64,000 bases of DNA from Minisyncoccia bacterium (GTDB lineage Bacteria > Patescibacteriota > Minisyncoccia > Phycocordibacterales > UBA9973): the NCBI GenBank assembly GCA_039809265.1, contig JBDHUR010000001.1, forward strand, positions 5,914 to 69,913. The letters run 5' to 3'. A model generated the notes under the pieces. It saw only the letters and a list, made by a program, of their open reading frames with translations. It was not told the origin of the DNA and made no database searches. Position numbers and translations under genes: made by a program. Positions within the stretch are counted from its first letter, which is position 1, and each line of letters opens with the position of its first letter. Of this stretch, positions 39,688-64,000 are shown one piece after another.

Positions 39688-41625
39688 ATGGCTGTAAACC
39701 CAGAAAAATTTGATTCGTATCACAAATACAAAAAAGCAAAAGACAAATCCGAGTCGATGGAACTGGACGAAAAAATAAAAAAACCTTTCAATAAAATGAT
39801 TAAGGTTCTATGGCAAGATGCGGTGGAAAGCAAGCATATTGACCCTACTAAGATAACTAAAGAACACAAAATGAACCCAGAAAATACATGGCGAAGACTG
39901 ACAAAAAACGACAAATTTGTATTTGCTGGCGCGCCAGCAGAGATTATAAATTTGAACAAAACAAAGGGTGAAGTTAGGCTAAAAACTCGCATCGGGGAAA
40001 AGACTTATAAAAAGAGAGATTTCATAGAGTTACTAAGGGGTGAGGAAATTCAAACTCAAGCCGAAAACCTGGAGACAAACAAGAAAACAACTGAAAAGAT
40101 TGCCCAATATATAAAATTCAACGGCATAGACAGAGTAGTTGTTCATGGTGAGCCTAGATACACAGAGAACCCAGACACCGGAGAAGGAGAACCCGTAAAG
40201 AGTGCTGAGCTGGACTTTGACACAGAAGTTGCTCTTTATTTCTTGAACTACAATCAAGACTTTACTTCAAGCGACACTGTATACAATACTGGGGCAAGCA
40301 CGGAGTTTGTCATGAAAGGCGAAAAATCATCTTTTACAAATTCTGAGATGGCTAAAAACGGCAAGGAAAGAAAAACACCGCTTAAAAAAGGCGCTCTTGT
40401 TTTACACATTGATACCGGTGAAAACAACCTTTCCATAGAAAAAGCCGGACAAGCAGTTGCGGCTTACGCAGACCATCACAAAGAGATCGACAATATAAGG
40501 ACATCTGCCGCTGAAATGGTCTTCAACATAATGACGGAAGCAGAAGCATATAAACCAGAGCCGTGGATGAGGCAGGTTGTGAGATTTGTAAATGAAGTAG
40601 ACAATCTATCATATGCGGACAAGAAAAATTTTACTCCTGGATATTTCCAAGAAATATGGCCAAAGACGCTATATGCGCTTCACAAATTCCTGCCGTACAA
40701 ACAAGTTATAAACTGGATAAGAGAGGGCCGAAACCCGGAAAATCCCTTCACCGAAACAGAACTTGATACTCTAACCGTAGAAACCAACGCAACAATAAAA
40801 AACAAAGAAACGGGTAAATACGAAAAGAAGCAGATACCATTGCGCGAGCTTGTAAATGTACGTGGCAAGCATGCTTTTGATTCCATGAAATATTTGAACG
40901 CTGCCACAAGGAACATGGGTGCCCAACACATAAAACAAGAAAGCAAAGAACTTGGTAGGGTTGCATTTGCAACTATGGACAGTGAAGTGGACATAAGAGG
41001 CAACAAAATATCTGGAACGTATCTCAAAGAAGGATACTTGGCGGCAAAAGCCAAAGGGTATGATACTTACGTATCATACAGCCAGAGCAACGACAGATTT
41101 TTCATAAACTCGACAAACAAGGACTTGCGTCCAATAATAAAAGAGGTAAAGAAAATTGTACCGAACGCAAAGCTGATACGAGGGGTTATGATACTGCCGG
41201 GAAAAGATGGCAACGGTGGCAAACTCACAAAAGAAAAGCTTTTAGAAATCTGCGGCCTGATGGATAAAGACACAATGTTATATAAGTATGACCCAAAACC
41301 TAAAATCTTGAGTCCTAAAGCGCAAGCATTTCAAAAAGAGAAGGAGAGAACAAGCCTCGAGAGAGAGATTGCGGACTTGGAAAAAAGAATAAAAGAGAAA
41401 ATGAAGAATATAAAAATTCTGCAGGAAGGCTTGGAGATAAACAAAGCTTATAACGAGGTCCTGGATGAAGAAATAAAAGAAATAGATACAAACAAGCGGG
41501 AAAAAGCGCGCGTTGAAGAAAATGAGGCGATAAAAGAAACTTTGTCCAGAGCTAGGAAGTTACTAAACACAAAAGGAGTAAAGCCAGACGAAGCGCTTAC
41601 CATAAGACCAAGGGAGGAAAAATAA
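39688..41625 (+). CDS. Hypothetical cytoplasmic protein (645 aa) with Lys/Glu-rich coiled-coil C-terminus
   Basis: Intact ORF; no signal peptide; no recognised catalytic motif. Confidence 0.5.
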   Translation: MAVNPEKFDSYHKYKKAKDKSESMELDEKIKKPFNKMIKVLWQDAVESKHIDPTKITKEHKMNPENTWRRLTKNDKFVFAGAPAEIINLNKTKGEVRLKTRIGEKTYKKRDFIELLRGEEIQTQAENLETNKKTTEKIAQYIKFNGIDRVVVHGEPRYTENPDTGEGEPVKSAELDFDTEVALYFLNYNQDFTSSDTVYNTGASTEFVMKGEKSSFTNSEMAKNGKERKTPLKKGALVLHIDTGENNLSIEKAGQAVAAYADHHKEIDNIRTSAAEMVFNIMTEAEAYKPEPWMRQVVRFVNEVDNLSYADKKNFTPGYFQEIWPKTLYALHKFLPYKQVINWIREGRNPENPFTETELDTLTVETNATIKNKETGKYEKKQIPLRELVNVRGKHAFDSMKYLNAATRNMGAQHIKQESKELGRVAFATMDSEVDIRGNKISGTYLKEGYLAAKAKGYDTYVSYSQSNDRFFINSTNKDLRPIIKEVKKIVPNAKLIRGVMILPGKDGNGGKLTKEKLLEICGLMDKDTMLYKYDPKPKILSPKAQAFQKEKERTSLEREIADLEKRIKEKMKNIKILQEGLEINKAYNEVLDEEIKEIDTNKREKARVEENEAIKETLSRARKLLNTKGVKPDEALTIRPREEK

Positions 41626-41666
41626 TCAACACCTTATTTTGCAGATTTTAAGTATAATACAATTAT

Positions 41667-44600: not shown

Positions 44601-45284
44601 GACAAAGCAGCAGATGTTACAACAAACACAAAGACAGAATTTGGCATAGATCCAGATACTAGACAGCAAAGCTGGTGGGATGGCAACGAGGTCAGCAGCA
44701 CATCTGCAACAGAAGACACAATAAATACAGCACCGAGCCAAGATTTGGGTATAGACCCTGACTCCAAACAACAAAGCTGGTATGGCGGAAATGAAGAAAC
44801 CCAAACTCCAAGCGTACCCGCAGAAAGTCCAAAGATAGAAGAAGTTACGGGAGGCAATAGCAGACACGAGGTGATACCAGAAAAAACAAATACTGCAGAA
44901 GAATATAGTAACGAAGTAGCGGAGAAAGCAGTAAAGATACCTGTGGAAACACAAAACCACAGTATACTTTCAAATATCACAGGCAAGGAAGACCTGAGCG
45001 ATAGCCGTTTGTGGCAGCGAGCACATGACATGCCTGTAGCAGATATATTCAAACAAACAGAAACATATATACGAGATGAGGCAAGTGACCGTTCCTACAA
45101 GAAACTTTGGGCATACACGCAGATGCTAAACAGATCAAGCGGGGTTTCTATTTTGAAGAATGAAACCTTGGAAGACTATTTGTCACGCGCCGGAAAAGTT
45201 TTCACGGAAAGAAACCCTGGCAAGTCCCTAGACTACGTCTACGAACTTTCGCAGAAATACTTGATAGAAGTGGAAACAAAGTAG
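41667..45284 (+). CDS. Giant (1205 aa) charged coiled-coil protein with two hydrophobic segments and internal tandem repeat
   Basis: Intact ORF; K/E-rich; hydrophobic 'AASFGIGYLMRGGAATAGLANYAGLAVAPVLGAL' and 'AVVKGAVMSFIFAGLGF'; repeats 'GIDPDTRQQSWWDGNE'/'GIDPDSKQQSWYGGNE'. Confidence 0.55.
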   Translation: MSSPENEKNIIQKSLNKTSEQLDTEKKELEKLARELEEKKKLFEKNHGLFSQEEFDKFVDSGEVSQEKLELLADKIKNRESLSDFEKAIHAGEYTGAEIAQIIQHKYPSPEQKKNLKKKTRENTKKLAEEEGGAQKEQAEKNGKKVQEDENKKESEKKNKGNKDRELTEQKEKNDIAQEFRKSFGFDPNENLESFKDLEPGAQRLAYKSLQNVQASMVPKLAEEIYETKQKSFLNYFRKSALIEGNKKEAAEQLSKAGYSKYEKYLKQIVGGIKNTGLEGVADGAVGIRMEYAHGLENLTEEEKKELVYFNRAATKFGDIPREWAFDDANKVEKFLAGEFSSRNNKQMYQEAKEAYEREKEGLAKIVLEKFGGDEERATNYLRMIDANVEFSQRVASDPNAMAALGALSAQGNAISKKSAMSAASFGIGYLMRGGAATAGLANYAGLAVAPVLGALRGLYKGRQNIREAERNVRTGEELKESQKTKFNTLTGKAKEEALKRELVEKMRATYRKTEETKTSAKGKEMQVGLRQKLENALDSLESAQGQLEKIDAEIANEKDAVRLNELHLNREKVASVVEMRQTFVNNRLVQVQKLLDSGDLDFGMKSERFANEYAMRDVLNKAYAVAISAPLGENNKNLNAFYKKFNVFFAEQLEAEQGIAARKTENVKAVKDAMIRHAVVKGAVMSFIFAGLGFEVRDLYNNSELHNKVSEFFGRWKADNLEANSAPIKAEVGADDEATEKVREMGKRWVDLDQYKPKSPLSHGDISKGVTVGHEHLEQATEKIENIRGISQDFAVTLGKNGVPAQLERVFHEISLDHMEVPNNALNEEVGAKSLNMAANLVRLSEGHNVLGASTESFKNSFSYDKGIGTLKIINHEKFNNLLDVLKTHSDKLWDNGTLQKGAAGELSNIKTETWLKIAHADDLDKALGGDGQEVVTGIHGHDEITEKDITDFHKSAIVEKTRALREKLAGKLAEHVDKAADVTTNTKTEFGIDPDTRQQSWWDGNEVSSTSATEDTINTAPSQDLGIDPDSKQQSWYGGNEETQTPSVPAESPKIEEVTGGNSRHEVIPEKTNTAEEYSNEVAEKAVKIPVETQNHSILSNITGKEDLSDSRLWQRAHDMPVADIFKQTETYIRDEASDRSYKKLWAYTQMLNRSSGVSILKNETLEDYLSRAGKVFTERNPGKSLDYVYELSQKYLIEVETK

Positions 45285-49252: not shown

Positions 49253-49654
49253 TTGATTTATGAAATGGAGTATACTATAGGCATGCGAAGGCTTTTATTT
49301 GTATTATTTTTCTTTGTTTTAGTATTTACTACTATCATCGGTCAAGCAATGGCCGCTGGGGCATCTCTTGGCATCCCGATCGGCGGGCTTATAACGACTA
49401 CTAATGTACCACCCAATGTTATCTGCTCAACGGGTATAGGGCCGATAACTATCAAGGTTGCTGGTAAAGGTAGCACTAGCCCATACCTAGCCACCTTTGC
49501 AGGGAATAGAACACCGCAAAATCAAGCCTCATCTGGCCGTTGGTTCCTTGGTCTTTACCAGCCTGGGTTAGGTTGCGTCCAAGAAAATGGCCCTGAGTCT
49601 CATCCATACCCCACACTAAATTGGATAATATATGGGGTTTCTGGAATGAAATAA
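49253..49654 (+). CDS. Small secreted protein
   Basis: 133 aa; signal peptide 'LLFVLFFFVLVFTTIIGQAMA'. Confidence 0.45.
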   Translation: MIYEMEYTIGMRRLLFVLFFFVLVFTTIIGQAMAAGASLGIPIGGLITTTNVPPNVICSTGIGPITIKVAGKGSTSPYLATFAGNRTPQNQASSGRWFLGLYQPGLGCVQENGPESHPYPTLNWIIYGVSGMK

Positions 49655-49656
49655 AC

Positions 49657-50595
49657 ATGCATTCATATTTGCCCAGTAAAAAATTCGTGCAGACATTCCT
49701 TATTCTTGCAGCTGTTTTTATAATCGGCTACTTTTTGTACCACATAGTTTTCAAAAAAGACGGCAAGATACCTTTCATTTCCGGTAATAAAGATTCTTCG
49801 GCTAAACTGGAGACCAAAGAAATAGTACTGCAAGACTTGATGGAAAAGGACACGGACGGAGATGGTATAAAAGACTGGGAGGAAGCACTCTGGGGCACAG
49901 ACCCAGAAAAATCAGACACGGACGGAGATGGTATTTCCGATTTTGACTATATAGAAAAGCGCCGCGAGGAAGTGCGCCAAGCTTCAGGCACTCCCGACCA
50001 AGAACTCTCAGATACCAATGCTACAGACGTTTTTACCAAGGAATTCTTTGCTGCGATAGTGGCGCTGCAACAGTCCGGCCAGCTGAACAGCCAAACACTT
50101 GCCGACCTTTCCAAACAACTTGCGGGTAACATTGGCCAGCAAAAGAGCTTGCCAGACATTTATAGCATCACGGATATAAAAATTGTATCTAACCCATCGC
50201 GAGCAGATATGCAAATATACGGCCAAGCAGTACAAGCCATGAGCAGCTCGTATTTTGCTAAAGGCATAGGCACAGAGCTGGATGTAACTTCAAATGCGCT
50301 AAGCACTGAAGACCCTGCTGAATATGCCAAGATTGCCAGCATTGCAAATGCTTATGCCGACTTTGCTGGAAAACTTGTCGCGCTCCAAACACCCGAAGAT
50401 ATAAGCGTGGATGTATTGAACCTTGCCAATAACATGCAGAAGTCCGCCAAAGCTTTGCAAAATATTTCCGCCATTCCAACCAATGAGCTGATAGGCATCA
50501 TCGGCATAAGCCAGTACAGCACATATAGCGACGACATGGTTAACTCGTTCACAAGTTTATCTAACTACTTGCAAAATAATGGTATACTGCAATAA
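49657..50595 (+). CDS. Membrane-anchored protein with thrombospondin-type-3-like Ca-binding repeats
   Basis: Start at MHSYLPSKK; TM 'FLILAAVFIIGYFLY'; repeats 'DTDGDGIKDWEE','DTDGDGISDFD'. Confidence 0.5.
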   Translation: MHSYLPSKKFVQTFLILAAVFIIGYFLYHIVFKKDGKIPFISGNKDSSAKLETKEIVLQDLMEKDTDGDGIKDWEEALWGTDPEKSDTDGDGISDFDYIEKRREEVRQASGTPDQELSDTNATDVFTKEFFAAIVALQQSGQLNSQTLADLSKQLAGNIGQQKSLPDIYSITDIKIVSNPSRADMQIYGQAVQAMSSSYFAKGIGTELDVTSNALSTEDPAEYAKIASIANAYADFAGKLVALQTPEDISVDVLNLANNMQKSAKALQNISAIPTNELIGIIGISQYSTYSDDMVNSFTSLSNYLQNNGILQ

Positions 50596-50598
50596 GTA

Positions 50599-53325
50599 AT
50601 GCAAAGATACAAAAGAAAATTACATACTGCGCTATCTCTTGTACTAGGAATATCTGTCTTTGCGCAAAGCTTTATTGCAATCATAACACCACAGACAGCA
50701 TACGCGCAAAATGCTAGTGCGAGCGCCTTTGCTGGACTAGGTTCCATCGCCGGAGCAGGAGTTGGCTGTCTTTTGGGTAATGCTTTCTCAGGAACCGGAC
50801 TCTTTAGCTCTGCTGACGGAAACACAACTGCGGGAATGGAAGTACCTACTGGAGACAAGGGGACTAGAGGAAATACTAGCGCACAGAAACAAAAAGAAAA
50901 CTGCCTAGACGCCATAGCTTATGCTGCAGCAAAAGCTTTACTGAAAAAATTTACTCAAGCTACTATAGTCTGGATAAACAGCGGTTTTAAAGGCGAGCCT
51001 CTGTATATAAAAAATCCTGAGTCATTTTTTAAAAGCATAGCGAACGAACAACTGGGTGGAATTATTTCCACATTAAGCAATACAGACAAGGTTCCATTTG
51101 GTAAAGACTTAGCAAGAAGCATTATCCTCTCCACGCAAGCAACTTTTGCAAAAAAGATTGAATACAATTTAAATAAAATAATAAGTCCAGATAGGGTGTA
51201 TCGTTTTCAAGCAGACTTTTCTGCTGGAGGCTGGGACGGCTGGTTAGGAGCGACCCAATTCCCACAAAACAATACTATCGGGGCACACATCGTAACCGCA
51301 GACGAGGTTACATATAAACTCTCTGGTACAGCTAAAGCGCCCGCCGAATATTTACAAGATGAATTAAGTCAAGGTATGGGATTTCTTGGACTAAAGAAGT
51401 GCGTTCAAACTTCAGATGGAAAAACAGCTGCCGACTATAATTACGAAGAATCAACAAATGAATCAATAGAAGACATAGATCCAAAAAAAATCACATGTAC
51501 TCGTTGGGAAACAATTACCCCTGGAACAGCTATTGCAAACCAAATGAACCTAACATTAGGCACATCTCAGCGACAACTAGAACTTGCAGATGAGCTAAAT
51601 GAAAGTATTGCTGGGGTATTTGATGCTCTTTTTAGTCAACTTTTAAACAAAGGTCTAGCCTCTTTGGGCAACAGCTCTTCTTCTAGTGGATATAATGTGG
51701 GTATCTATGGTGGTTATGGAAACAACTCTAATAACTCTAGCCTAAATAGTAACGGTAACCCATACGGGGTAGAGGATCCAGACCAATGGTATAACCAAAA
51801 CCCTACATTTAATATTTGGCATGACCTACAGACTATTATAGACGTTCAGCAAAAAGTCTACGATGATCTTCAAAAAGAAAATTCTGCATTACAAAATCTT
51901 ACAACTGCAATATATGAACTAGACTTTTGTGTGCCTGGACCAAACCCACTATGGTACGATAACGCGCAACAAACAGTAAACGATTTCTTTGGAGATATCC
52001 CTCAAAAGGCTGATGATCTTGGAGATAAGTTACGAAAAGCAAATAAATGGTTTGACCCAGGGGGTATGGTTATGGCTTCTACAGGCTGGGCAAACGAACT
52101 AGGTTTAAACCCACCAGGGTCAAACGGCTGGTCTCAACAAAGAATACAAGAACTGTATGCAAAATTCCTAAAGCAAGCCATAAACTTCTCTGGCGAAGAT
52201 GACGAAACAATGACCTCAGAACATATATCTTCTTTGGGTAGCATTGTGCTTGAACAATATGCTTCAAAAATAAGCTCAAAATACGGCGTATCTGGCTTAC
52301 ACCAAGCTGGAGAATATATGCCGACAGTGGCAGCAAGCTTGCCAAAGCTATACAACAACATACCTAGATACTTAAACCAAATTGACACCAACAACACAAA
52401 GATGGATGACTTTGAAGGTATTATCCGCCAACTTCAATCTATAAGCGTTGCGGTTAAAGATATCCCAGAGGACCCAGACAACCAAACAAGTGCCGACAAA
52501 ACCGCAATAACTACATATCTAAGAATTATAGGTAGCATGGCACAATATATGGCAAGCGAAAGTGTTATACAAACACTGGAAGACGAACTATTTGCTATAA
52601 ATGGCATATACGACATGGTGGCAAATGGAAATAATAGCTTGATAAATCAATGCAAGACAGAACTACGCACAACAAGTCCGACTGGAATAGACTCTTCTAA
52701 TATAAAAGGTTTACGTTTTGCTTACCCTACAGACTTGTTGCCACAGTCTATACAAGATGCATACACAGGCAACCTTGGTGGATATATGACACATCAAATG
52801 TACAAATTCGGTACTTCATATCTTCCGGGAACTTTCTACAAGAGCAATGTAAAGCAGACTAGCTGGCAGTGGCCTTCCCTAGACTCATTAACACACCAGT
52901 ATGATATGAGATCATATTTTACACCAAGCTTTTCTCAAAAATCTGCATTATACGATCAACGAGCGGGTAAATATAACCCAGATATTCCAGGACTATGGGC
53001 ATGGTGCACGGCAGAAGGATTCCAATACACAACAGTAGTAAATAATGCAGTTCAAGCAACAAATCTTGGAATACAATTAGGGCAATCGTACACATTTACG
53101 ATACCAGCGCCGTCCAATAATTCAGGCTTTGGAACAACTCCAGCTCTTTGTAATCCTAGTTTACCTGACAACAATGGTACGGTGATAAAAAACGACCCTA
53201 ATATTAGTGACTTTACATTAAATAGAGCGCTAGACTTTATAGATGTTACAAGTTCTGGTTTGCAAGTTAATAGACCGGACCAAACTAACCTTGCTGGATT
53301 CGAATCATTCCTTGGAATTTATTGA
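50599..53325 (+). CDS. Large (908 aa) secreted protein, first gene of the T4SS-like block
   Basis: Signal peptide 'LSLVLGISVFAQSFIAIITPQTAYAQNASA'; Asn/Gly/Ser-rich; no enzymatic motif. Confidence 0.55.
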   Translation: MQRYKRKLHTALSLVLGISVFAQSFIAIITPQTAYAQNASASAFAGLGSIAGAGVGCLLGNAFSGTGLFSSADGNTTAGMEVPTGDKGTRGNTSAQKQKENCLDAIAYAAAKALLKKFTQATIVWINSGFKGEPLYIKNPESFFKSIANEQLGGIISTLSNTDKVPFGKDLARSIILSTQATFAKKIEYNLNKIISPDRVYRFQADFSAGGWDGWLGATQFPQNNTIGAHIVTADEVTYKLSGTAKAPAEYLQDELSQGMGFLGLKKCVQTSDGKTAADYNYEESTNESIEDIDPKKITCTRWETITPGTAIANQMNLTLGTSQRQLELADELNESIAGVFDALFSQLLNKGLASLGNSSSSSGYNVGIYGGYGNNSNNSSLNSNGNPYGVEDPDQWYNQNPTFNIWHDLQTIIDVQQKVYDDLQKENSALQNLTTAIYELDFCVPGPNPLWYDNAQQTVNDFFGDIPQKADDLGDKLRKANKWFDPGGMVMASTGWANELGLNPPGSNGWSQQRIQELYAKFLKQAINFSGEDDETMTSEHISSLGSIVLEQYASKISSKYGVSGLHQAGEYMPTVAASLPKLYNNIPRYLNQIDTNNTKMDDFEGIIRQLQSISVAVKDIPEDPDNQTSADKTAITTYLRIIGSMAQYMASESVIQTLEDELFAINGIYDMVANGNNSLINQCKTELRTTSPTGIDSSNIKGLRFAYPTDLLPQSIQDAYTGNLGGYMTHQMYKFGTSYLPGTFYKSNVKQTSWQWPSLDSLTHQYDMRSYFTPSFSQKSALYDQRAGKYNPDIPGLWAWCTAEGFQYTTVVNNAVQATNLGIQLGQSYTFTIPAPSNNSGFGTTPALCNPSLPDNNGTVIKNDPNISDFTLNRALDFIDVTSSGLQVNRPDQTNLAGFESFLGIY

Positions 53326-53459
53326 GCCTTGTGAGAATAAAAATATATAAATGACCTAGGTTTTCCACCTCATAGACGAGTGAAGTATGGAAAGTAGTGT
53401 TATAATTGAAACGTATTTCTTGCTTTGATAGGCAGTTTCTGTGTACACGAAATATTTTC

Positions 53460-56400
53460 ATGTTTAAGAAAATCGTACTAATAGCTACAATATTTGGCAT
53501 CTTCGGCGGCTTATTTACACCAGCGTTTTCTGTGAAAGCGTGGGCAGAGGCTGACTTACAAAAAATAACTATTTCTATTAGTGTTAATACCATACAAGAA
53601 GATAAATCTAATGGTAAATACTCAGCAATCATACCTGTAGTTATTAAATCAAATTTTAAAGAATTTGGAGATCACACTATCCATCTAGATATCTACAGCG
53701 CAGCTCCAGGAGGAAAAGCTGAGAAGAAGGTCAGTAAAGAATTCACTCCTCATATAGACAAACCGAAAGATGAGTTTATAGAACAAACATTTCTAACACA
53801 GACAGATGCGGTTTTAGAAAAAGGTTATGGCTATTCGGCTATTGCTTTCATTTCATTACCACAACTAGCTGGGCAGACTACTCCTGGACAATGGATTATT
53901 GGACCGAACGGTATTCCCGTTGTCTCCTTTCCACCCAAGACAACAAATACTTATACTCCACCAATATCCAACACCTCAATTTTTACAATAAAAACCGACG
54001 GCTCTACAAGCATTGCGAATGAAGATAGTAGTGGTACACAAAATACAGCACAAAACGTAACCTCAAACGAACCTTCTGCTCTTCCAGAATGTAATATTCT
54101 TTACTCCAGCACATGGCCTGGTTGTATTGCTCGAGTTATATATTATATTTTTTTTATACCAACATCTTTTGTGTTTGGACTCAGTGGTCAGTTTTTAGAC
54201 TGGGGAACAAGTTTCACTATAGACTCAAATTCATACAAAGGCAGTGCAGCTACTTTCATTGAATCTGGATGGAAAATAACACGTGATATTGCAAACATAC
54301 TATTCATATTCATACTCCTCTGGGTTGGCATAGGCACAATACTAGGCTCACACAGTGTAGATGCAAAGAAGACAATAGGTATGGTGATAATTATAGCTCT
54401 CCTGTTAAATTTCAGCTTGTTTTTTGCCAGAGTAATAATAGACGCATCTAATATTCTGGCTGGGGTTTTTTATAATCAAATAGACGTGCAAGATGAAGGA
54501 TCCAACAACCAATGGGTATTCAGTGATAAAAATGTAAAAAATATTTCCACGGCTATAGTTAGTAAATTTAACCCACAAAAGCTTTTTGCTCAAGCTGGAA
54601 CACTTAAGATAAACACCGGCACAGGTGTAAAGGATGGATCAACAGATGGTGGAACGAATGGTGAACCAGCCCCCGGACAATTCATAATAATCACACTCAT
54701 AATGTCTGTTATAAACTGTATAGGTATTTGGGTATTTTTCTCTGTTGGCTTCCTATTTCTTTCTCGTGTAGCAGGACTTTGGCTTGCTATGATATTTGCA
54801 CCATTGGCATTCATATCATACATACTTCCTTCTAGTTCTGCGGGAGCGCTGGGAGACATGCATCATAGTAAGTGGTGGGGCAACCTTGTTCGCTTGGCAA
54901 TGATGGTGCCAATGTTTATGTTCTTTATGTATCTCATACTCATGTTCATGAATACAAACTTCATAGCAAATGCAATGGGAGACAAAACCACAACACTTGC
55001 GATACTTGGAGTAGTAATACCGTTGCTCATCATTGTAGTACTTCTACAAAGAGCAAGGAAAATAGTGGTAGACTGGTCTGGAGAACTTGGTAAAATGGCA
55101 GCACAGGCAGGCACAGCTGTGGCTGGATTTAGTGTGGGCGCACTGACAGGCGGAGCAGCGATGCTTGGCCGTGGTACTATTGGCAGACTCGCCAACAAAG
55201 CTGCGAGCAGTGAAGAGTTAAAAGATAGAGCAGCAAAAGGAGACAGGATGGCAAAAATGCAACTAAAAAGCGCAGAATTTCTATCAAAATCAAGTTTTGA
55301 TGCTCGCAACACAACGGTTGGAAATAAAGTTTCTCAAGCAACAGGCATGAACCTGAATAAGGGTTTATCTTTTGCCGGTCTGAATACCAAATCCACAGAA
55401 GGTGGCTGGGTAGGACTACAGGCAAAAAAGGCAGAAAAGGAAGCAAGTAGATGGAAAGACAGTTATGACCACCACGCTTATGAACAAGAAGAAGAAAAAG
55501 TAAACGCCGAAAAAGAAAAGCAATCAAAAAACAAAGATATAAAAGAAGATATACAAAACAAAATACGTGTGGAGAAAGCAGCCATAACAACAATGGCAGA
55601 TGGATCTCAAGAAAAAAAGGACGCACAGCGACGTGTTCAAAAACTAACAGAAAGCTTATCTATAGTTGATACAAACATTAGAGCATATGAGAAAGGTGGT
55701 AAAACATATGCCATAAACTCAAACGGAGAATATGTAGATAAAAACGGTAAAGTTGTGACAGACAAGAAAGACGCACACATGGAAGAGTCTTTGGGTATAC
55801 AAAAGATGGAGAAAAACAAAGAGCGCTTAAAAACAGCGAGACAAAAAAACCACGAATCTGTTTTGCGTCGAAAATCTGGTAAACGATATCTGGATGACGA
55901 AAGAGATGAATTGGGTAATATAAAGAAATTTGGTGAAGAAATAACCCCTGGTTTGGAAAAGAAACTGAGAAAAGAAAAAGACGAAAAAAATAAAGAAAAA
56001 AATGAAGCCCTGCAACACAGGCTTGATATAGGAAAAGATATAAATGATGTAAATCAAAAAATGAAAGAAGCGGCAAAAAAAGTAAGCGAGGCACAAAAAA
56101 AGGGAGATAAAGCACTTATAAAATCTACAAGCGACGCACTTAAAGGTTTAGTAGAACAAAGAAAGCAGCTAGAAAAATCTCAAAATGATGCAAAAGAAAA
56201 ATCTGACACCTTAGTAAAAGAATTTAATAAGGTTTCCAACAAGCTTGGTAAAGTAGAAGTAGCTAATCTTAAAACAAACTATAACGGTGTAAGGCAAGTA
56301 CTAAGAGAACTTGGCGAAGGTGCGGCTAGGGGCGCAGCAGTAGGTGCAGCAGTAGGGACTGCTATTCCTGGAGCAGGCACGTTTGCTGGAGCTGGAGTAG

Positions 56401-56594
56401 GAGCAGTCATGGGTGGACTTAGACAAGTACTTGAATACAGTGGTACCACGAACAGAAGTATTGCAAATGGACACATTCCACACTACCATGGTAGTGGCTC
56501 AACATACAGAGAGCCTAGCGGTGGTGGACAAGACACACCATCGGCATCTTCACACAGTGGAGGAGGTGGAGGAGGGGATCATTCACACCACTAA
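53460..56594 (+). CDS. VirB6/TrbL-like polytopic membrane protein with N-terminal secreted domain and long Lys/Glu coiled-coil C-terminal tail
   Basis: Start at MFKKIVLIATIFG; signal peptide, ~230-aa extracytoplasmic domain, 6-7 TM helices between aa ~245 and 560, ~500-aa hydrophilic tail ending Gly/His-rich. Confidence 0.55.
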   Translation: MFKKIVLIATIFGIFGGLFTPAFSVKAWAEADLQKITISISVNTIQEDKSNGKYSAIIPVVIKSNFKEFGDHTIHLDIYSAAPGGKAEKKVSKEFTPHIDKPKDEFIEQTFLTQTDAVLEKGYGYSAIAFISLPQLAGQTTPGQWIIGPNGIPVVSFPPKTTNTYTPPISNTSIFTIKTDGSTSIANEDSSGTQNTAQNVTSNEPSALPECNILYSSTWPGCIARVIYYIFFIPTSFVFGLSGQFLDWGTSFTIDSNSYKGSAATFIESGWKITRDIANILFIFILLWVGIGTILGSHSVDAKKTIGMVIIIALLLNFSLFFARVIIDASNILAGVFYNQIDVQDEGSNNQWVFSDKNVKNISTAIVSKFNPQKLFAQAGTLKINTGTGVKDGSTDGGTNGEPAPGQFIIITLIMSVINCIGIWVFFSVGFLFLSRVAGLWLAMIFAPLAFISYILPSSSAGALGDMHHSKWWGNLVRLAMMVPMFMFFMYLILMFMNTNFIANAMGDKTTTLAILGVVIPLLIIVVLLQRARKIVVDWSGELGKMAAQAGTAVAGFSVGALTGGAAMLGRGTIGRLANKAASSEELKDRAAKGDRMAKMQLKSAEFLSKSSFDARNTTVGNKVSQATGMNLNKGLSFAGLNTKSTEGGWVGLQAKKAEKEASRWKDSYDHHAYEQEEEKVNAEKEKQSKNKDIKEDIQNKIRVEKAAITTMADGSQEKKDAQRRVQKLTESLSIVDTNIRAYEKGGKTYAINSNGEYVDKNGKVVTDKKDAHMEESLGIQKMEKNKERLKTARQKNHESVLRRKSGKRYLDDERDELGNIKKFGEEITPGLEKKLRKEKDEKNKEKNEALQHRLDIGKDINDVNQKMKEAAKKVSEAQKKGDKALIKSTSDALKGLVEQRKQLEKSQNDAKEKSDTLVKEFNKVSNKLGKVEVANLKTNYNGVRQVLRELGEGAARGAAVGAAVGTAIPGAGTFAGAGVGAVMGGLRQVLEYSGTTNRSIANGHIPHYHGSGSTYREPSGGGQDTPSASSHSGGGGGGDHSHH

Positions 56595-57493: not shown

Positions 57494-57910
57494 ATGCAAT
57501 TCAAAGTCCCACAATTTATAGATGTTGAAGACAAAATTTTTGGACCTTTTACGTTCCGACAATTTTTGTATCTGGCTGGAGGAGCGGGGATATGCTTTTT
57601 ACTTTACAAAACTCTGCCCCTCGTTGTAGCTATAATTATAATGTTGCCGGTCATAGCTCTTTCTCTTGCTTTGACTTTCTATAGAGTAAACGAAAAACCT
57701 TTCATATATATACTTGAGGCATATATAGGCTACCTTGGCAAAAACAAGCTGTACGTTTGGAAAAAAGCTCCGCCGGAAAAGAAAAGCACAGACAAGACAG
57801 ACGCTGCACAGAAACCGGCAGCAGAGAGTTACGTGCCAAAGCTTTCTGAAAGCAAGCTAAAAGACATATCTTGGAGTTTGGATGTGCTGGATGTAAATAA
57901 AGGCAATTAA
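57494..57910 (+). CDS. Small two-TM protein, VirB3/PrgI-like
   Basis: 138 aa; 'FTFRQFLYLAGGAGICFLLY' resembles the VirB3 'L(T)RP..FLGVP' region; lies upstream of virB4 as in most T4SS loci. Confidence 0.45.
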   Translation: MQFKVPQFIDVEDKIFGPFTFRQFLYLAGGAGICFLLYKTLPLVVAIIIMLPVIALSLALTFYRVNEKPFIYILEAYIGYLGKNKLYVWKKAPPEKKSTDKTDAAQKPAAESYVPKLSESKLKDISWSLDVLDVNKGN

Positions 57911-57939: not shown

Positions 57940-58605
57940 GTGCCATATATGGCTTTGAATGCTAGAGCAACTCAAGATTTTGTACCGATACAAGAGGTCA
58001 GAGACGGCGTCATAATACTAAAAGACGGCGGGGTACGAGCTGTTTTGCTTGCTTCTTCTATAAACCTCTCTCTCAAGTCCGCGGATGAACAGCAGGCTAC
58101 CCTTTTACAGTTTCAGACTTTTTTGAACTCGTTAGACTTTTCTACACAAATATCTGTCCAGTCCCGAAGGCTAGACATACGTCCATACTTAAACTTGCTG
58201 GAAAACAGGATGAAAGAACAGCTTGAGCCGTTGCTTAAAATACAAACAAGGGAGTACATAGAGTTTATAAGGTCTTTTACAGATAGTGTAAATATAATGA
58301 CAAAAAGCTTTTTCATAACCGTACCGTACACCCAACCTGCACTTTCTGCCGGCGGAGCAGTTAGCGGACTGAAGAATTTGATCCCTGGGCAAAAAAGCCA
58401 GCCGGATAAAAAAAGCACTGAGCAGCTGGACTTTGAAGAGAAAAGGAGTCAACTGGACCAGCGCATAGGGGTAATACAGCAGGGTTTGTCTCGTGTAGGT
58501 ATCCGCACAGTGGAGCTTGGGACAGAAGAGATAGTGGAGCTATTTTACAAAATTTTCAACCCAGGAGAAGTTACACAATCTATAAAACTAGATACGCAAA
58601 GCTAA
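57940..58605 (+). CDS. VirB4/TrbE N-terminal domain encoded as a separate ORF
   Basis: 221 aa; 'VRDGVIILKDGGVRAVLLASSINLSLKSADEQQ' matches the VirB4 N-terminal 'LEDGSIMSIARIDGVAFELEE' region; 'FFITVPY' matches VirB4 'LTLVVYP'. Confidence 0.6.
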   Translation: MPYMALNARATQDFVPIQEVRDGVIILKDGGVRAVLLASSINLSLKSADEQQATLLQFQTFLNSLDFSTQISVQSRRLDIRPYLNLLENRMKEQLEPLLKIQTREYIEFIRSFTDSVNIMTKSFFITVPYTQPALSAGGAVSGLKNLIPGQKSQPDKKSTEQLDFEEKRSQLDQRIGVIQQGLSRVGIRTVELGTEEIVELFYKIFNPGEVTQSIKLDTQS

Positions 58606-58609: not shown

Positions 58610-60445
58610 ATGGCAATTTTAGACTTCTTAAAAAAGAAAACAGACGCTGGAAATAATAAAAGGGCGGTTTTGCCTGTTTTACCTACAGAAATATACGAAG
58701 CGGCAACATTAGAGTTCAAAGATATTATAGCGCCTTCGGCGCTAAAGATAGAGCCGAAGGCGCTAAACCTTGGAGACAAAATGGCACGCACTTTCTTTGT
58801 CATATCTTATCCAAGGTATTTGTCAGACAACTGGTTCTCTCCGATCATAAATTTGGACAAGATATTTGATGTATCCATCTTCATACACCCCATAGAAACA
58901 GCCAAAATTTTGCGAGACTTCCAGAAAAAGGTAGCGGAAGTGCAAAGCCAGATAAGCATCCGCGAAAGCAAAGGTCTGGTGCGAGACCCGATGCTGGACA
59001 CTGCATACCAAGACCTAGAATCTTTGCGAGACAACCTACAGCAAGCGCAAGAGAAGATATTTGATGTTGGGCTTTATATTACAGTTTACGGCAATAACGA
59101 AAACGACTTGTTCAAGATAGAAAACGAGATAAAGTCTATATTGGAATCAAAGCTGGTATACTTGAAACCTGCCCTTTTCCAGCAAGAGGAAGGCTTTGAC
59201 TCTGTGATACCCATAGGCAATGACATACTGAACGTGCACCAAAAACTAAACTCCGAACCGCTTTCATCCATCTTCCCATTTGTTTCTTTCGACCTAACTT
59301 CCGACAAAGGAATACTTTACGGGGTGAATAGGCACAACTCTTCACTTGTTATATTTGACAGATTTTCTCTTGAAAACTACAACTCTATCATCTTTGCAAA
59401 GTCAGGCTCTGGAAAATCTTATGCTACGAAGCTGGAAATACTTCGTACACTCATGTTTGACACAGAAGTTATTGTCATAGACCCGGAAAGAGAGTATGAG
59501 TATTTAGCTGAAGCAGTGGGTGGAAGATACTTCAACATATCACTGTCTTCGCAACATCACATAAACCCTTTTGACTTGCCGGTGCCGCGAGAAGACGAAA
59601 CCCCGGCAGATGTGCTTCGTTCTAATGTCATAAACCTCGTTGGCCTATTCCGTATCATGCTTGGCGGATTGACCCCAGAAGAAGACTCTATAGTAGACAG
59701 AGCAATAACAGAAACTTACGCAATCAAAGACATAACTGCAGACTCCGACTTCTCCAACATTGAACCGCCGCTTTTGACAGACTTTGAGATGGTGCTTGCT
59801 GGCATGGATGGATCAGAGTCTCTGATACAACGCCTAACCAAGTTCACTAGAGGCTCTTGGTCTACATTTCTAAACCAGCCATCAAACGTAGACATAAATA
59901 AAAAATTCGTAGTGTTCTCCGTGAGAGACATGGAAGATGAGCTGAAGCCGGTAGCAATGTACATAGTCACGCACTTTATCTGGAACGCCGTGAGAAAGAC
60001 ACTGAAAAAACGCCTCTTAGTGGTGGATGAAGCTTGGTGGATGATGAAGTCAGACGACACAGCCTCTTTCCTTTACTCTATAGCCAAGCGAGGCAGAAAG
60101 TACTACTTGGGACTTTGCACCATAACCCAAGACGTGGGAGACTTCATGCGCAGTCCATACGGCGTACCCATCGTTACAAACAGCTCCCTACAACTCCTAT
60201 TGAAACAGTCTCCGTCTTCTATAGACCTGCTGCAAAAAACCTTTAATCTTACAGACGAAGAAAAATATCTGCTACTGGAATCCAATGTCGGGGAAGGGAT
60301 ATTCTTTGCCGGACTAAAGCATGTTGCTATAAAGATAATATCTTCATATACAGAAGACCAAATAATAACTTCCGACCCATCGCAGGTGTTAGCAATAAAG
60401 AAATCAAAGGATGAACTAGAAGCAGCGGAACGCGGTGTAAAGTAA
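58610..60445 (+). CDS. VirB4/TraC/CagE-family T4SS ATPase (middle plus C-terminal ATPase domain)
   Basis: 611 aa; 'FFVISYPRYLSDNWFSPII' (VirB4 'IYSFREYP' region), Walker A 'AKSGSGKS', Walker B 'LLVVDEAWWMM', downstream 'LGLCTITQD' motif. Confidence 0.8.
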   Translation: MAILDFLKKKTDAGNNKRAVLPVLPTEIYEAATLEFKDIIAPSALKIEPKALNLGDKMARTFFVISYPRYLSDNWFSPIINLDKIFDVSIFIHPIETAKILRDFQKKVAEVQSQISIRESKGLVRDPMLDTAYQDLESLRDNLQQAQEKIFDVGLYITVYGNNENDLFKIENEIKSILESKLVYLKPALFQQEEGFDSVIPIGNDILNVHQKLNSEPLSSIFPFVSFDLTSDKGILYGVNRHNSSLVIFDRFSLENYNSIIFAKSGSGKSYATKLEILRTLMFDTEVIVIDPEREYEYLAEAVGGRYFNISLSSQHHINPFDLPVPREDETPADVLRSNVINLVGLFRIMLGGLTPEEDSIVDRAITETYAIKDITADSDFSNIEPPLLTDFEMVLAGMDGSESLIQRLTKFTRGSWSTFLNQPSNVDINKKFVVFSVRDMEDELKPVAMYIVTHFIWNAVRKTLKKRLLVVDEAWWMMKSDDTASFLYSIAKRGRKYYLGLCTITQDVGDFMRSPYGVPIVTNSSLQLLLKQSPSSIDLLQKTFNLTDEEKYLLLESNVGEGIFFAGLKHVAIKIISSYTEDQIITSDPSQVLAIKKSKDELEAAERGVK

Positions 60446-60491
60446 CAGTTTTCCCTCGTTTTTTTGCTCAAAGTATTTTATACTTAGATAG

Positions 60492-61529
60492 ATGAAGATA
60501 AGCATATTTGCAAACTCGTTTAGAAAGTTTGCCTTAAAAGCGGTGTTGGCTTTTGCTTTTTTGTCTATACTTATTTCACCAGCCAACGCTTTGGCTCAAT
60601 CTTTGCTTGATTCTTCTTTTACTGCCAACGATGTATCGGTGGAACTTTCACCGGAAATACCGGCACCGAACCAGACTTTGACGATATCTTTAACAAGCTA
60701 CACGGTAGACCTAGATAAAGCGCGAATGACTTGGACACAAGACGGCAAGATAAAAAACAGTGGGACCGGCATAAAAGAGTTCAGTGTGCAAGTGGGTGAC
60801 GTGGGCTCAACAACAACCATAGATGTATCTATAGTTATAAATGGATTGAATAGATTTGACAAAAGGATAGTTGTCAGCCCCTCAGAAGTAGACATGTTGT
60901 GGGAAGCGGTAGACTCTTATGTTCCACCGTTCTATGAAGGAAAAGCACTGCCTTCATCCGAAGCTGTAATAAAAGTTGTGGCAATACCCAACAACAAGAC
61001 AAACAATACCGACATTCAAACCGGCAACTTTGTTTACAATTGGAAAAAGAACTTTGCAGCAGACCAAAGCGCATCTGGCTTTAGTAAAAATAGCTACGTT
61101 TTCAAGGCAAGCTACCTGAATGCAGAAGAAACAATATCTGCAAATGCAGCCTCAGTATCTGGCAACAGTGGCGGGGAAGGAAGCGTAACCATAGTGACAG
61201 GTAAACCTAAAATAATATTCTATGAAGACGCAGCAGGCATCGGCCCTGTATATGCCAGTGCCTTGAACCAAGGCTATAGACTGACCAACAACGAAGCCAC
61301 GGTCGTAGCCGTGCCGTATTTCTTCTCTGTGAGCAATCCTGCCGCCAAAGACTTGCTTTACAGATGGAGCATAAACAACAACAACATAGACACGCCTTCA
61401 CCGGCAAATACACTTGTCATAAAAAGCGCCGGGGAAACAGGACAAGCAAAAGTTGGCTTGCACTTGGAGTCCGCAAGTAAACTTTTCCAATCCATAGACC
61501 AGACATTTTTTGTAGACATAATAAAGTAA
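60492..61529 (+). CDS. Secreted protein (345 aa) in the T4SS-like block
   Basis: Signal peptide 'ALKAVLAFAFLSILISPANALA'; beta-rich composition. Confidence 0.5.
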   Translation: MKISIFANSFRKFALKAVLAFAFLSILISPANALAQSLLDSSFTANDVSVELSPEIPAPNQTLTISLTSYTVDLDKARMTWTQDGKIKNSGTGIKEFSVQVGDVGSTTTIDVSIVINGLNRFDKRIVVSPSEVDMLWEAVDSYVPPFYEGKALPSSEAVIKVVAIPNNKTNNTDIQTGNFVYNWKKNFAADQSASGFSKNSYVFKASYLNAEETISANAASVSGNSGGEGSVTIVTGKPKIIFYEDAAGIGPVYASALNQGYRLTNNEATVVAVPYFFSVSNPAAKDLLYRWSINNNNIDTPSPANTLVIKSAGETGQAKVGLHLESASKLFQSIDQTFFVDIIK

Positions 61530-61535
61530 AGCAGT

Positions 61536-63365
61536 ATGACTTTCAAAAAGATAATGAAAAATAAGGCGATGATAGCAATGAGGATTTTTATTGTTGCATT
61601 CATCGCATCCTTGCCATTTATCTCTCGTGCAGTATCTGGAACAGAAATGCAGACCAACGAACTGACAGACACTTCTGTACTAATAACCGGACGCATATTA
61701 AACCCAGACAACCAAAGCGTAAAAATAGGCACAGTAGAGCAAAACAACCCGCAAGCTTCATATGTATATACCAACCCGTTTACCTTGCTGGATGATGCCA
61801 GTGTGCCGCCAATAGAGGGTAGGACAGGAAATACTACAGGGTATGGGAACACAAGTGTGGGGGAAAGAACTGGTAAAAACAATACTACAGGATATGGTAA
61901 TACAAGCGTGGGAGAAAAAGGTGTTTACAATAACACTTCAGCTTATGGAAACACTGGTGTTGGAGAAAAAGGCTCCGCATACAACAGTGTGGTGTACCAA
62001 ACCATCTCTGGCCTTGCACCAAATACTACATACTGCTCTGTGGTAGTAGATGCCAGCGATCCTTCCAATACACCTATATATGGCAGTGAGATATGCTACA
62101 CCACACTTGCAACAGGCGCTTCATATAAAAATGGGGAACTGACAAGTGTGGTATTAGACACACAGTCAATGACAGATACTAGTGCAACGATAAAGTTTAT
62201 GGTAAATCCAGACGGAAAAGCACTCGGACTTAGCCTAAAATATGGCGTTGGCAAAAAGGACTTTACAGACAGCGACTATACCAAAGACATAGGGGAATTC
62301 TTCCGCACTGCGACGACCACTTCCAACAGCCTGCCTGCAACAGCAGAGATCAAAAATCTAGAGAAAGATACAACTTACTATTATGAAGTTTACAACACAG
62401 ACACAAAAGAAGTTTACCACGACAACTTATTCACAACAGCTGCTTCTGCCGGCACAGTTATAAACCAAAACAGCAGTAATACCACAACAACAACTACATG
62501 CGTACCAGGGGAGTACTGCTTGCTTGCTCCGCTTCCGGGACTTTCAAAGATAAATGTACAAACGACAGGTATAGGCGGATACCTTGCAATAATATTCAAG
62601 ATAGGTATAGGCCTTGCTGGAGTATTGGCTGTGGTGATGCTGGTAGTTGGAGGCATACAGTACATGTCTACAGATGCGTTTTCTGAAAAAGCAGATGGCA
62701 AGTCTAGAATGATGAATGCAATCATTGGGCTTCTGCTTGTCCTTGGTGCATGGGTTATACTAAATACACTAAATCCAAATTTGCTCATATTCAATCTGGA
62801 TTTACAGAAGGTTTCTATAACAGTTGACCCTTCTCTCATAGATAGTGATGAAGCAGAGACACAACCACCAACTGGTGCTAACTACACATCATATCCATAT
62901 AAAAATCGAGACAAAATAGACGATGTTTTTCCAACACCTAAAACATCTGATATGCTTGGCACACTCAAAACTTTAAATGTCGATGTAAGTGGTTCAAACA
63001 GTTCAAAACCCATCTGTGATACAGTTGGACAAACAGGCTGCACAGCATTGGCTGGCATACCTTCAAAGGTTACTGTTGGGCTGCAAAAAATTAGGACAAA
63101 GTGTCCTAATTGTGAACTTACAATAACTGGCGGAACAGAATTTTGGCTTCATAAATCACATGGTCCTGGAAAAGATAAGATTGACTTAAGAAACAACTCC
63201 CGGGCCTCAAACTTTGTAAAATATGTGACTAGCGGTAAAAAAATAGGGCAGATAACTGGGTGGGGTGTACTGTATGTTACAGATGGAATAGAGTTTGTTG
63301 ATGAGGGAAATCATTACCATGTCTGGGGTTGGAATAATGACCATGCTTCAAGTTATAATAAATAA
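61536..63365 (+). CDS. Composite surface protein: signal peptide, GYGNTSVGE repeats, FN3-like modules, VirB2/TrbC-like double-TM hairpin, C-terminal LAS-metallopeptidase-like domain
   Basis: 609 aa; 'GGYLAIIFKIGIGLAGVLAVVMLVVGGIQYM...GKSRMMNAIIGLLLVLGAWVIL' hydrophobic hairpin; 'HKSHGPGKDKIDL' and 'EGNHYHV' resemble H-x(n)-D / H-x-H zinc motifs. Confidence 0.5.
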   Translation: MTFKKIMKNKAMIAMRIFIVAFIASLPFISRAVSGTEMQTNELTDTSVLITGRILNPDNQSVKIGTVEQNNPQASYVYTNPFTLLDDASVPPIEGRTGNTTGYGNTSVGERTGKNNTTGYGNTSVGEKGVYNNTSAYGNTGVGEKGSAYNSVVYQTISGLAPNTTYCSVVVDASDPSNTPIYGSEICYTTLATGASYKNGELTSVVLDTQSMTDTSATIKFMVNPDGKALGLSLKYGVGKKDFTDSDYTKDIGEFFRTATTTSNSLPATAEIKNLEKDTTYYYEVYNTDTKEVYHDNLFTTAASAGTVINQNSSNTTTTTTCVPGEYCLLAPLPGLSKINVQTTGIGGYLAIIFKIGIGLAGVLAVVMLVVGGIQYMSTDAFSEKADGKSRMMNAIIGLLLVLGAWVILNTLNPNLLIFNLDLQKVSITVDPSLIDSDEAETQPPTGANYTSYPYKNRDKIDDVFPTPKTSDMLGTLKTLNVDVSGSNSSKPICDTVGQTGCTALAGIPSKVTVGLQKIRTKCPNCELTITGGTEFWLHKSHGPGKDKIDLRNNSRASNFVKYVTSGKKIGQITGWGVLYVTDGIEFVDEGNHYHVWGWNNDHASSYNK

Positions 63366-63368: not shown

Positions 63369-64000
63369 ATGAAAAAAGCAATTAAGACATTTCTAATAAT
63401 AGTACTGGTCGGGGCAGCGGTGTTTGGCGGCTTGTGGTACTTGAAGAGCAGAAATGGAGCAGTAAACGAGAACGGCACTACGAACGGAGGAGGTATAACA
63501 CTTCGCGACTTTTTCCCATTTGGATCAGATACTAAAGTTACGGACGAAGAGCCTCTTACTCCGTCAACAGAAACAAAAGATGAGGAACCAGCGGCATCTG
63601 TCGCAAAAGAACAAAACCTTGTACAGATATCCGGTAACCCTGTAGCGGGGTTTGGTTTCGCCATGGTAAATGTAGCACCAGACGGAAATGCTGTGGCAAA
63701 AGAATATGTGACAGTAAAAGCTGGTATTACTTTCACCAAAGATTTGGCTCGCGACAGCAAAGATAACCAAGTGAAGGAACTACAAAAACTTTTCAACCAG
63801 TGTGAAGAACTTCAGCTAGCAGTCTCTGGTGTCGGCTCAGTAGGGAAAGAGACTACGAGCTTTGATGAAAAGACAGAAAATTCTCTGAAGATTTTCCAAA
63901 CAATGTTTAGAAACATAGACCCTGCAACAAACGCTCCACTTGATCCTTCAGGCAAGGTAGATGCACAAACTAGAGCGAAACTGAATACTCCTTTTGACTG
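63369..64000 (+). CDS. Membrane-anchored protein with PG_binding_1-like peptidoglycan-binding domain (gene runs off the window end)
   Basis: N-terminal TM 'FLIIVLVGAAVFGGLWYL'; 'FDEKTENSLKIFQTMFRNIDPATNAPLDPSGKVDAQTRAKL' matches the PG-binding pattern. Confidence 0.5.
   Translation, partial: MKKAIKTFLIIVLVGAAVFGGLWYLKSRNGAVNENGTTNGGGITLRDFFPFGSDTKVTDEEPLTPSTETKDEEPAASVAKEQNLVQISGNPVAGFGFAMVNVAPDGNAVAKEYVTVKAGITFTKDLARDSKDNQVKELQKLFNQCEELQLAVSGVGSVGKETTSFDEKTENSLKIFQTMFRNIDPATNAPLDPSGKVDAQTRAKLNTPFD

Follow-up and report, generated by a model that had tools for sequence, protein, structure and literature searches.

The window analyzed here is a 64,000-nucleotide stretch from a Minisyncoccia bacterium (contig JBDHUR010000001.1, positions 5,914 to 69,913), and near its end, on the + strand at 61536..63365, lies a gene that joins a pilin domain of a type IV secretion system (T4SS) to a putative cell wall hydrolase. 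The open reading frame (ORF) starts with ATG and encodes 609 amino acids (aa); all coordinates below are on the + strand unless stated otherwise. The protein, which we refer to as the fusion, begins with a Sec-type signal peptide (aa 1 to ~35, 61536..61640) that has a Lys-rich N-region, a hydrophobic core, and an ...SRA/VSG end; a helix is modeled at aa 3-25, and the cleavage site is a predicted one. There follow an FN3-like module that is split by a repeat insertion (aa ~36-200, 61641..62135), a second FN3-type β-sandwich (aa ~201-300, 62136..62435), a C-x5-C-LLAPLPG element that forms the leader of the pilin domain (aa 322-335, 62499..62540), a VirB2-like two-helix hydrophobic hairpin (aa 345-419, 62568..62792), and a swappable C-terminal cassette with a putative LAS-like zinc peptidoglycan peptidase domain (aa 432-609, 62829..63362). 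A Kyte-Doolittle scan (19-residue window, >1.6) finds exactly three hydrophobic segments in the protein, at aa 10-35, 345-379, and 390-419, the first of which bears out the signal peptide proposed in a preliminary description of this DNA. The motifs named in that description are located at aa 160 (LAPNTTYCSVVV), aa 278 (DTTYYYEVY), aa 539 (HKSHGPGKDKIDL), and aa 592 (NHYH). A near-identical protein is present in public assemblies (P0001), with G in place of the window's R in ...YKN(R/G)DK.... The features observed in the 609-aa protein are far beyond chance.

Sequence comparison identifies the hairpin as a genuine pilin-family domain. Residues 353-412 match the Pfam T4SS_pilin model PF18895 at 35.6 bits, above the gathering threshold of 26.6 and covering model positions 12-71 of 71, and the two helices of the AlphaFold model span aa 346-378 and 382-412 with predicted local distance difference test (pLDDT) values of 86-93. 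The hairpin is 44-66% identical to homologues that carry unrelated flanking domains and ∼50% identical to stand-alone pilins of 120-198 aa (typical members of the same family, up to ∼200 aa), which share the layout of a signal peptide, an LLAPLP leader, the hairpin, and an NP-x-LL end. The leader had been described as a CxxxxC-APLPG motif; the APLPG part stands, but motif scanning places the cysteines at a C-x5-C rather than a C-x4-C spacing (CVPGEYCLLAPLPG, aa 322-335). Y327, L330, and P332 of this element are invariant or near-invariant in 66 homologues, the LLAPLPG element recurs in the stand-alone pilins, and aa 326-340 are modeled as a β-hairpin. Other pilin models respond less strongly: the NCBIfam Mbov_0395 pilin-like family (NF045849) reaches 27.9 bits over aa 339-410, below its cutoff of 40, and no PF04956 (TrbC/VirB2) match was found in the window protein by the Pfam scan. 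A sister fusion (P0328) has precomputed matches to both PF18895 and PF04956 and links the Patescibacteria pilins directly, by sequence, to classical VirB2. In size, the fusion departs from the small subunits of the PF18895 type (∼100-200 aa), as it has 609 aa and large domains flank its hairpin. We rejected the reading of the hairpin as a generic transmembrane anchor because it scores above the Pfam threshold, is better conserved than both of its flanks, and is ∼50% identical to short pilins. The pilin-like hairpin of the preliminary description is thus upheld, and its gene lies two genes after VirB4 in a T4SS operon. No other pilin-domain ORF is present in the window or, in nearly all related loci, within 10 kb on either side of the fusion. 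A profile search with the pilin hairpin returned short stand-alone pilins only and is uninformative on how the fused domains are distributed.

The family defined by the C-terminal domain is large. Searched with its profile, 1.84 billion representatives gave 1349 matches at E ≤ 1e-3, with 656 of these at E ≤ 1e-10, and 150 of the 154 retrieved proteins bearing the domain also contain the pilin hairpin. Its residues fall into two motifs. Motif 1, E535-x-W537-x-H539-x2-H542-x7-D550 (TEFWLHKSHGPGKDKID, 63138..63185), would supply the zinc ligands H542 and D550; motif 2, E590-x2-H593-x-H595 (EGNHYH, 63303..63320), would supply a catalytic Glu and the third zinc ligand. These eight residues (E535, W537, H539, H542, D550, E590, H593, and H595) are 99-100% conserved in 150 cluster representatives at 50% identity, and when C494, G498, C502, T503, C523, C526, G532, and G533 are added, conservation over the whole set is 92-100%. 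The published Hedgehog/DD-peptidase motif combines H-x6-D, H-x-H, and a catalytic Glu (PMC6027127), and the second half of this definition is found here, as E590, H593, and H595 are each 99% conserved.

An AlphaFold model of the domain, built from a 57-sequence alignment, has a pLDDT of 89.2 and a predicted template modeling score of 0.86. Structural comparison of this model places the Sonic hedgehog N-domain (ShhN) first (scores of 5.4 and 5.2), followed by Drosophila Hedgehog and MepA (4.5 each), VanX (4.3), the VanY-like LdcB (4.0), VanYB (3.7), VanXYc (3.6), and, lowest among those tabulated, VanXYg and the S. albus DD-peptidase (3.4 each, the latter at 20% identity). The scores are low, yet one small fold class heads the list, which is unlikely to be accidental. 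The modeled elements also follow the order of those in ShhN: a strand (ELTIT), a loop with H539 and H542, a strand that begins at D550, a helix, and a sheet whose final strand carries H593-x-H595. Motif 1 falls on a strand-loop-strand segment, as in ShhN, and motif 2 on the last β-strand. Profile comparison adds an indirect route to the same fold. Some orthologues carry, in place of the window's domain, a second uncurated domain (TEAW-type, W-VTEAW-P...H...CH..GTCIDANF...HFSVY). In hhalign, the TEAW-type profile (37 sequences) matches ShhN at a probability of 63% and an E of 7e-5, the His and Asp of the zinc site falling in the same columns; the window's domain matches TEAW-type at an E of 0.0016, and across the 113 aligned columns TE-W, His, Asp, and the C-terminal His keep their register. 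The chain from the window's domain through TEAW-type to ShhN is weakly positive, and TEAW-type itself looks, by sequence, like another divergent Hedgehog/DD-peptidase-like family without a Pfam model. TEAW-type domains are borne on the same pilin hairpin in P0004, P0018, and P0301-P0339, and in locus L084 (6966-7964).

Several results weigh against the assignment to this fold. The invariant H542-x7-D550 is one residue longer than the H-x6-D of the LAS/Hedgehog-DD-peptidase fold (MEROPS M15 with VanX, VanY/LdcB, and the S. albus DD-peptidase; M74 with MepA; Hedgehog N). Foldseek of the domain model against the PDB gave nothing below an E of 0.08, with ShhN at an E of ∼1. Pfam searches with 6 and then 57 members gave nothing relevant, the latter at E values up to 10, NCBIfam gave no match either, and no PDB entry matched by sequence. 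Direct hhalign comparison of the domain profile with ShhN gave a probability of 0.05%, and comparison with the VanY-type tails of sister loci showed no significant similarity. Two additional strands and four invariant cysteines (C494, C502, C523, and C526) set the domain apart from the LAS peptidases, and it has no hidden Markov model-level similarity to any of the Pfam M15 families. The four cysteines may bind a second metal in a structural site or pair as disulfides, and the conserved histidines need not all be catalytic. The LAS-type peptidase of the preliminary description has moderate but indecisive support; the indirect profile chain is weakly in its favor, and the direct Foldseek, Pfam, and hhalign comparisons are negative. 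Taken together, we consider it probable that the domain is a LAS-like zinc peptidase and, with greater assurance, predict that it is a peptidoglycan hydrolase of some kind.

The broader prediction draws on what occupies the same position in related proteins, which is support for a hydrolase that does not depend on the fold. YkuD, NlpC/P60, and SLT domains were already present at the C-terminus of full-length relatives in a first homology search. A survey was then anchored on the gene directly upstream (p345, below) and comprised 80 metagenome loci taken regardless of what lay downstream. A pilin-domain ORF directly follows p345 in 54 of the 80; 51 of the pilin ORFs extend at least 100 aa beyond the hairpin, and a plain short pilin is found at one locus only. 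The 51 tails comprise the window's domain (13), lysozyme/SLT-like (13), VanY (10), NlpC/P60 (7), YkuD (3), and TEAW-type (1) domains, with 4 unclassified. The VanY tails are above the Pfam threshold (32.1 bits), and the tails retain their catalytic motifs: DCSG in NlpC/P60, H...GC[IV]R in YkuD, and SxHxxGxAxD in VanY. A scan of the window and of the 68 related loci found first (below) for the VanY motif gave zero matches; the canonical VanY tails come solely from the p345-anchored set. In the window protein itself, no SLT, CHAP/NlpC-P60, LytM, or muramidase domain was detected with Pfam or NCBIfam.

The exchange is also seen between close strains. A contig from a public sequencing-run assembly (L069) is 99.2% identical to the window over 59863-62828, has no similarity to it over 62829-63351, and is again 89.5% identical at the DNA level from 63352 onward. 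Its protein has a YkuD domain where the window has the LAS-like domain, and the breakpoint is at about aa 431, directly after the NP-x-LL tail of the hairpin. Because identity downstream of the cassette is 89.5% as against 99.2% upstream, the recombination tract probably reaches into the next gene. By these comparisons, the enzymatic module is a replaceable cassette, which in orthologues is a VanY, NlpC/P60, lysozyme/SLT-like, or YkuD domain. The preliminary description had proposed checking for a conserved hairpin region with N-terminal repeats that vary across strains; the reverse is found, as in 99%-identical strains the repeats are conserved and the C-terminal domain is swapped.

The N-terminal half is built from FN3 modules, as had been proposed. 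Module 2 is confident in the full-length model (aa 204-300, pLDDT ∼90, seven strands), and Foldseek matches it to FN3 domains of the PDB at E values of 1.3e-4 to 1e-3 and a probability of 1.0, with a template modeling score of up to 0.70 against a tenascin FN3; FN3 matches occupy the Foldseek list for the full-length model. Its Pfam match to Pur_ac_phosph_N is weak (26.1 bits, below the threshold of 30). Module 1 has low confidence in the model (pLDDT 27-68), which we attribute to the insertion within it of three 17-aa repeats (NTTGYGNTSVGER/K..., aa 96-146, with motif starts at aa 102, 119, and 136; 61821..61973). In the homologues P0003-P0005, module 1 is uninterrupted and has the same ...TxYCxxVxD...PIYGSExC... 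strands. The repeats had been described as a triplicated GYGNTSVGE(K/R); two copies are exact, at aa 102 and 119, and the third, AYGNTGVGEK at aa 136, is degenerate. The repetition is seen in the protein only, as Tandem Repeats Finder reports no DNA-level tandem repeat behind the units. Used alone, the repeat region matches tail-fibre/adhesin-like proteins with PF13884 (Peptidase_S74) or PF26696 (P0020-P0034), which suggests a borrowed fibre-like segment. The sources of these matching proteins call them trimeric autotransporter adhesins. The minimal form of the family consists of a signal peptide, the hairpin, and the C-terminal domain in ∼285-350 aa, and the FN3 modules are therefore a lineage-specific addition.

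The fusion belongs to a monoderm-type T4SS operon that extends from ∼53.4 kb onward in the window, in the order 1062-aa protein, 279-aa protein, PrgI, TrsD-like protein, VirB4, p345, fusion, and a protein with a PG_binding_1 domain. The first is a polytopic membrane protein (53406..56594) that is VirB6-like by position; tblastn places homologues at the corresponding position in 35 of the 68 loci, and no family match was obtained beyond a weak glycine-zipper match in Pfam. It contains a long lysine/glutamate-rich coiled region and ends in glycine-zipper-like repeats and GGGGGGDHSHH. PrgI (VirB3-like, 57494..57910) is recognized by Pfam at 43.6 bits. The TrsD-like protein (221 aa, 57940..58605) has TrsD/TraD and VirB4 N-terminal matches, and the VirB4 ATPase (611 aa, 58610..60445) scores 378 bits against a cutoff of 325 for the NCBIfam CD1110-family VirB4. 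The VirB4 function is thus split between a 221-aa ORF and a 611-aa ATPase that starts 4 bases on, and the same split is found in about 48 of the 68 related loci. VirB4 ends 1.1 kb upstream of the fusion gene, and the interval is occupied by p345 (60492..61529), a secreted 345-aa protein with no Pfam or NCBIfam match. Always placed between VirB4 and the pilin fusion, p345 is present in 50 of the 68 genome loci and has at least 568 confirmed metagenome matches. YxPPFYxG and VVAxP are invariant in it, and the protein is probably a core, unnamed T4SS component in the lineage. Downstream lies a membrane-anchored protein (63369..64000) that is cut by the window end and has a borderline Pfam PG_binding_1 match (23.4 bits, threshold 23). 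In L069 (3513-5120), this protein is complete, with 535 aa and a conserved C-terminal region of ∼310 aa with no assigned fold, and its homologues directly follow the fusion in 103 of 148 loci.

The 68 loci come from a scan of one genome per species for the C-terminal domain. Nearly all are titled Patescibacteria or unclassified metagenome-assembled genome, and two read "uncultured Bdellovibrionales"; those named are mostly Paceibacteria lineages (Nomura-, Yonath-, Zambryski-, Kaiser-, and Lloydbacteria). The order VirB6-like protein, PrgI, TrsD, VirB4, p345, fusion is found in about 50 of the 68, and the remainder are mostly cut by contig ends. In the near-identical strain contig, dnaA lies ∼4 kb downstream, which agrees with the published location of Patescibacteria T4SS clusters near the replication origin (PMC12102498).

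The nearest described relatives of the fusion are the VirB2-like pilins of Patescibacteria (PF18895; Quinonero-Coronel et al. 2025, PMC12102498; Wang et al. 2023, PMC10633639), which share its signal peptide, LLAPLPG leader, hairpin, and NP-x-LL end and are likewise encoded next to virB4 in chromosomal, relaxase-poor, monoderm-type T4SS clusters near dnaA. The described pilins are ∼120-200 aa long and often occur in arrays of 2-11, as in the array known from Ca. Southlakia epibionticum (Wang et al. 2023, PMC10633639), whereas the fusion has 609 aa, is present as a single copy, and carries ∼300 aa of FN3 modules ahead of the hairpin and a 180-aa enzyme-like domain behind it. The pilin-like protein of Mycoplasma integrative and conjugative elements (NF045849, Mbov_0395) also has such a hairpin and belongs to a wall-less or monoderm conjugation system; unlike the fusion, proteins of this family have ∼80 aa and no fused domains. 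On the hydrolase side, the VirB1-like enzymes of Gram-positive bacteria (PrgK of pCF10, TraG of pIP501, and Orf14 of Tn916) are, like the fusion, membrane-anchored extracytoplasmic proteins encoded in T4SS operons. These tethered hydrolases are the cell wall part of the Gram-positive conjugation apparatus, and their hydrolase domain varies by system among SLT, CHAP/NlpC-P60, LytM, and muramidase (PMC12857230); to judge from the titles of studies cited in PMC12102498, conjugative transfer is reported to require PrgK and TraG. Orthologues of the fusion carry SLT-like or NlpC/P60 domains, as VirB1-like enzymes do. The window's own enzyme-like domain falls outside the VirB1 domain types and is not covered by a Pfam model, and the anchor also differs: a pilin-family hairpin in the fusion, a single N-terminal transmembrane helix in the VirB1-like enzymes.

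We lean toward an explanation in which the fusion is a VirB2-like pilin component of the Paceibacteria-type monoderm T4SS that also performs the job of VirB1. After removal of the signal peptide, the two hydrophobic helices would insert into the membrane as a hairpin. Because a cleaved signal peptide puts the N-terminus outside and two helices return the C-terminus to the same side, both the FN3 modules and the enzyme-like domain would be extracytoplasmic, where the peptidoglycan is. The C-terminal domain would then act as a zinc-dependent LAS-like (Hedgehog/DD-peptidase-fold) peptidoglycan peptidase, with H542, D550, and H593 or H595 as the candidate zinc ligands and E590 with H539 as the candidate catalytic residues. 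The hairpin would hold this enzyme at the secretion apparatus, where peptide links of the wall may be cut so that the T4SS structure can cross. As is the case for VirB1-like proteins, the fusion is a membrane-tethered, extracytoplasmic protein within a T4SS operon, and its enzymatic activity is predicted. We count the PG-binding-domain protein encoded downstream in favor of a wall hydrolase as well. That a VirB2-like subunit bears the VirB1-like function is the parsimonious reading of this operon type. A survey found VirB2-like pilins nearly everywhere in Patescibacteria and VirB1-like hydrolases rarely, with most pilin bearers lacking a recognizable VirB1, and concluded that pilus biogenesis may not need such a hydrolase (PMC12102498); a VirB1 function located on the pilin subunit would explain why surveys find pilins but few VirB1 homologues.

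Whether the fusion polymerizes is a separate matter. The hairpins may form the T4SS pilus, or a tube that spans the wall, with the FN3 modules and the hydrolase on the outside, where they attach to and digest the wall of a host bacterium, in epibiont attack or feeding, and not that of the producer. VirB2-type pilins have both termini on the pilus exterior, as seen in the F and T pilus structures, and fused domains would thus be displayed outward. This reading also gains from the status of the fusion as the only pilin-family gene of the operon in nearly all loci, from the ∼50% identity of its hairpin to stand-alone pilins, and from the FN3 modules and adhesin-like repeats, while a cassette that differs between 99%-identical strains is what a host-facing function would lead one to expect. 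Epibiotic growth in Saccharibacteria requires the T4SS and its pilins (PMC10633639). By our estimate, however, ∼300 aa on the N-terminal side and 180 aa on the C-terminal side of each subunit may not fit helical packing, and VirB1-like enzymes directed at the wall of the producer also vary in hydrolase type (PMC12857230). We regard a true polymerizing pilin as unlikely, although the strain-level swap and the adhesin-like modules keep a host-directed reading alive. In its boldest form, which we put forward as a speculation that is slightly harder still to credit, the Paceibacteria T4SS pilus or stub is made wholly of fusion subunits and sheathed in FN3 adhesins and hydrolases, a self-drilling organelle that binds the host wall and bores through it enzymatically and whose cassettes are recombined to match host wall chemistry.

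Two further readings concern the cassette itself. The C-terminal domain may not be an enzyme but a metal-stabilized pseudo-peptidase, comparable to Hedgehog-N or the inactive LytM factors, that binds peptidoglycan or a ligand on the host surface, such that the whole protein is an adhesin or anchor. Its best structural match is indeed a signaling protein, ShhN, its His-Asp spacing is noncanonical, its four invariant cysteines suggest a structural role, and the sequence-level tests against active M15 families were all negative. Pseudo-enzymes usually lose catalytic residues, however, as Drosophila Hedgehog has lost D148 and E177 (PMC6027127), and here the putative catalytic E590 and the additional H539 vary no more than the ligands do; in orthologues, moreover, domains with intact catalytic motifs occupy this position. 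We find a nonenzymatic domain quite improbable. The alternation of a conserved N-terminal region with a C-terminal cassette that varies even in near-identical strains also recalls polymorphic toxins, in which a conserved delivery region is followed by a variable toxin and a matching immunity gene, and wall-degrading domains are typical of antibacterial effectors. The downstream gene, however, does not covary with the cassette, since 89.5% DNA identity is kept in the YkuD strain, and its product is the conserved 535-aa operon member (103 of 148 loci). Neither the window nor L069 has a small, variable ORF of the immunity type after the fusion gene, and a protein with a Sec signal and two transmembrane helices is not an obvious translocated substrate. 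As the downstream gene is conserved whatever the cassette, we rejected the toxin/immunity reading, which we hold to be very unlikely.

Novelty lies in the fusion itself, in its being the one pilin that a widespread operon encodes, in the exchange of hydrolase domains at a single slot, and in two uncurated LAS-like families. The components themselves (pilin, FN3, wall hydrolase, and probably the LAS fold) are of kinds already known. The expectation that this would be a novel T4SS-associated architecture agrees with the literature: pilin-hydrolase fusions are not mentioned in PMC12102498 or PMC10633639, and the full text searched, including these two T4SS papers and a 2025 review, contained no published description of a pilin-hydrolase fusion or of the C-terminal domain. 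Patescibacteria account for a large part of bacterial diversity, and the one lineage studied by genetics cannot live on its host without the T4SS and its pilins (PMC10633639). For the Paceibacteria-type operon, the fusion of a wall-cutting function to the pilin would offer a simple resolution, and hydrolase domains of at least seven kinds can fill the slot that it occupies. The two uncurated domain families, one with more than 1300 sequence clusters, resemble very divergent enzymes of the Hedgehog/DD-peptidase fold. The arrangement bears on how an ultrasmall epibiont passes a secretion machine through a wall, be it its own or that of its host.

The rest of the window, with a G+C content of ∼36-46%, contains housekeeping genes and four tRNAs. 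A protein with LysM and Peptidase_M23 domains, a canonical LAS-family wall peptidase, is encoded at 38345-39556 on the - strand, ∼22 kb upstream and outside the T4SS block. An antisense ORF at 61358-61882 was rejected as a gene, as it overlaps well-supported + strand genes and searches gave it no support. Three large ORFs (645, 1205, and 908 aa) without a Pfam match lie at 39688-45284 and 50599-53325 and flank or precede the T4SS block, and a bacterial TSP3 repeat is present in a 324-aa ORF at 49621-50595; these large ORFs and the TSP3 ORF may encode surface proteins linked to the T4SS.

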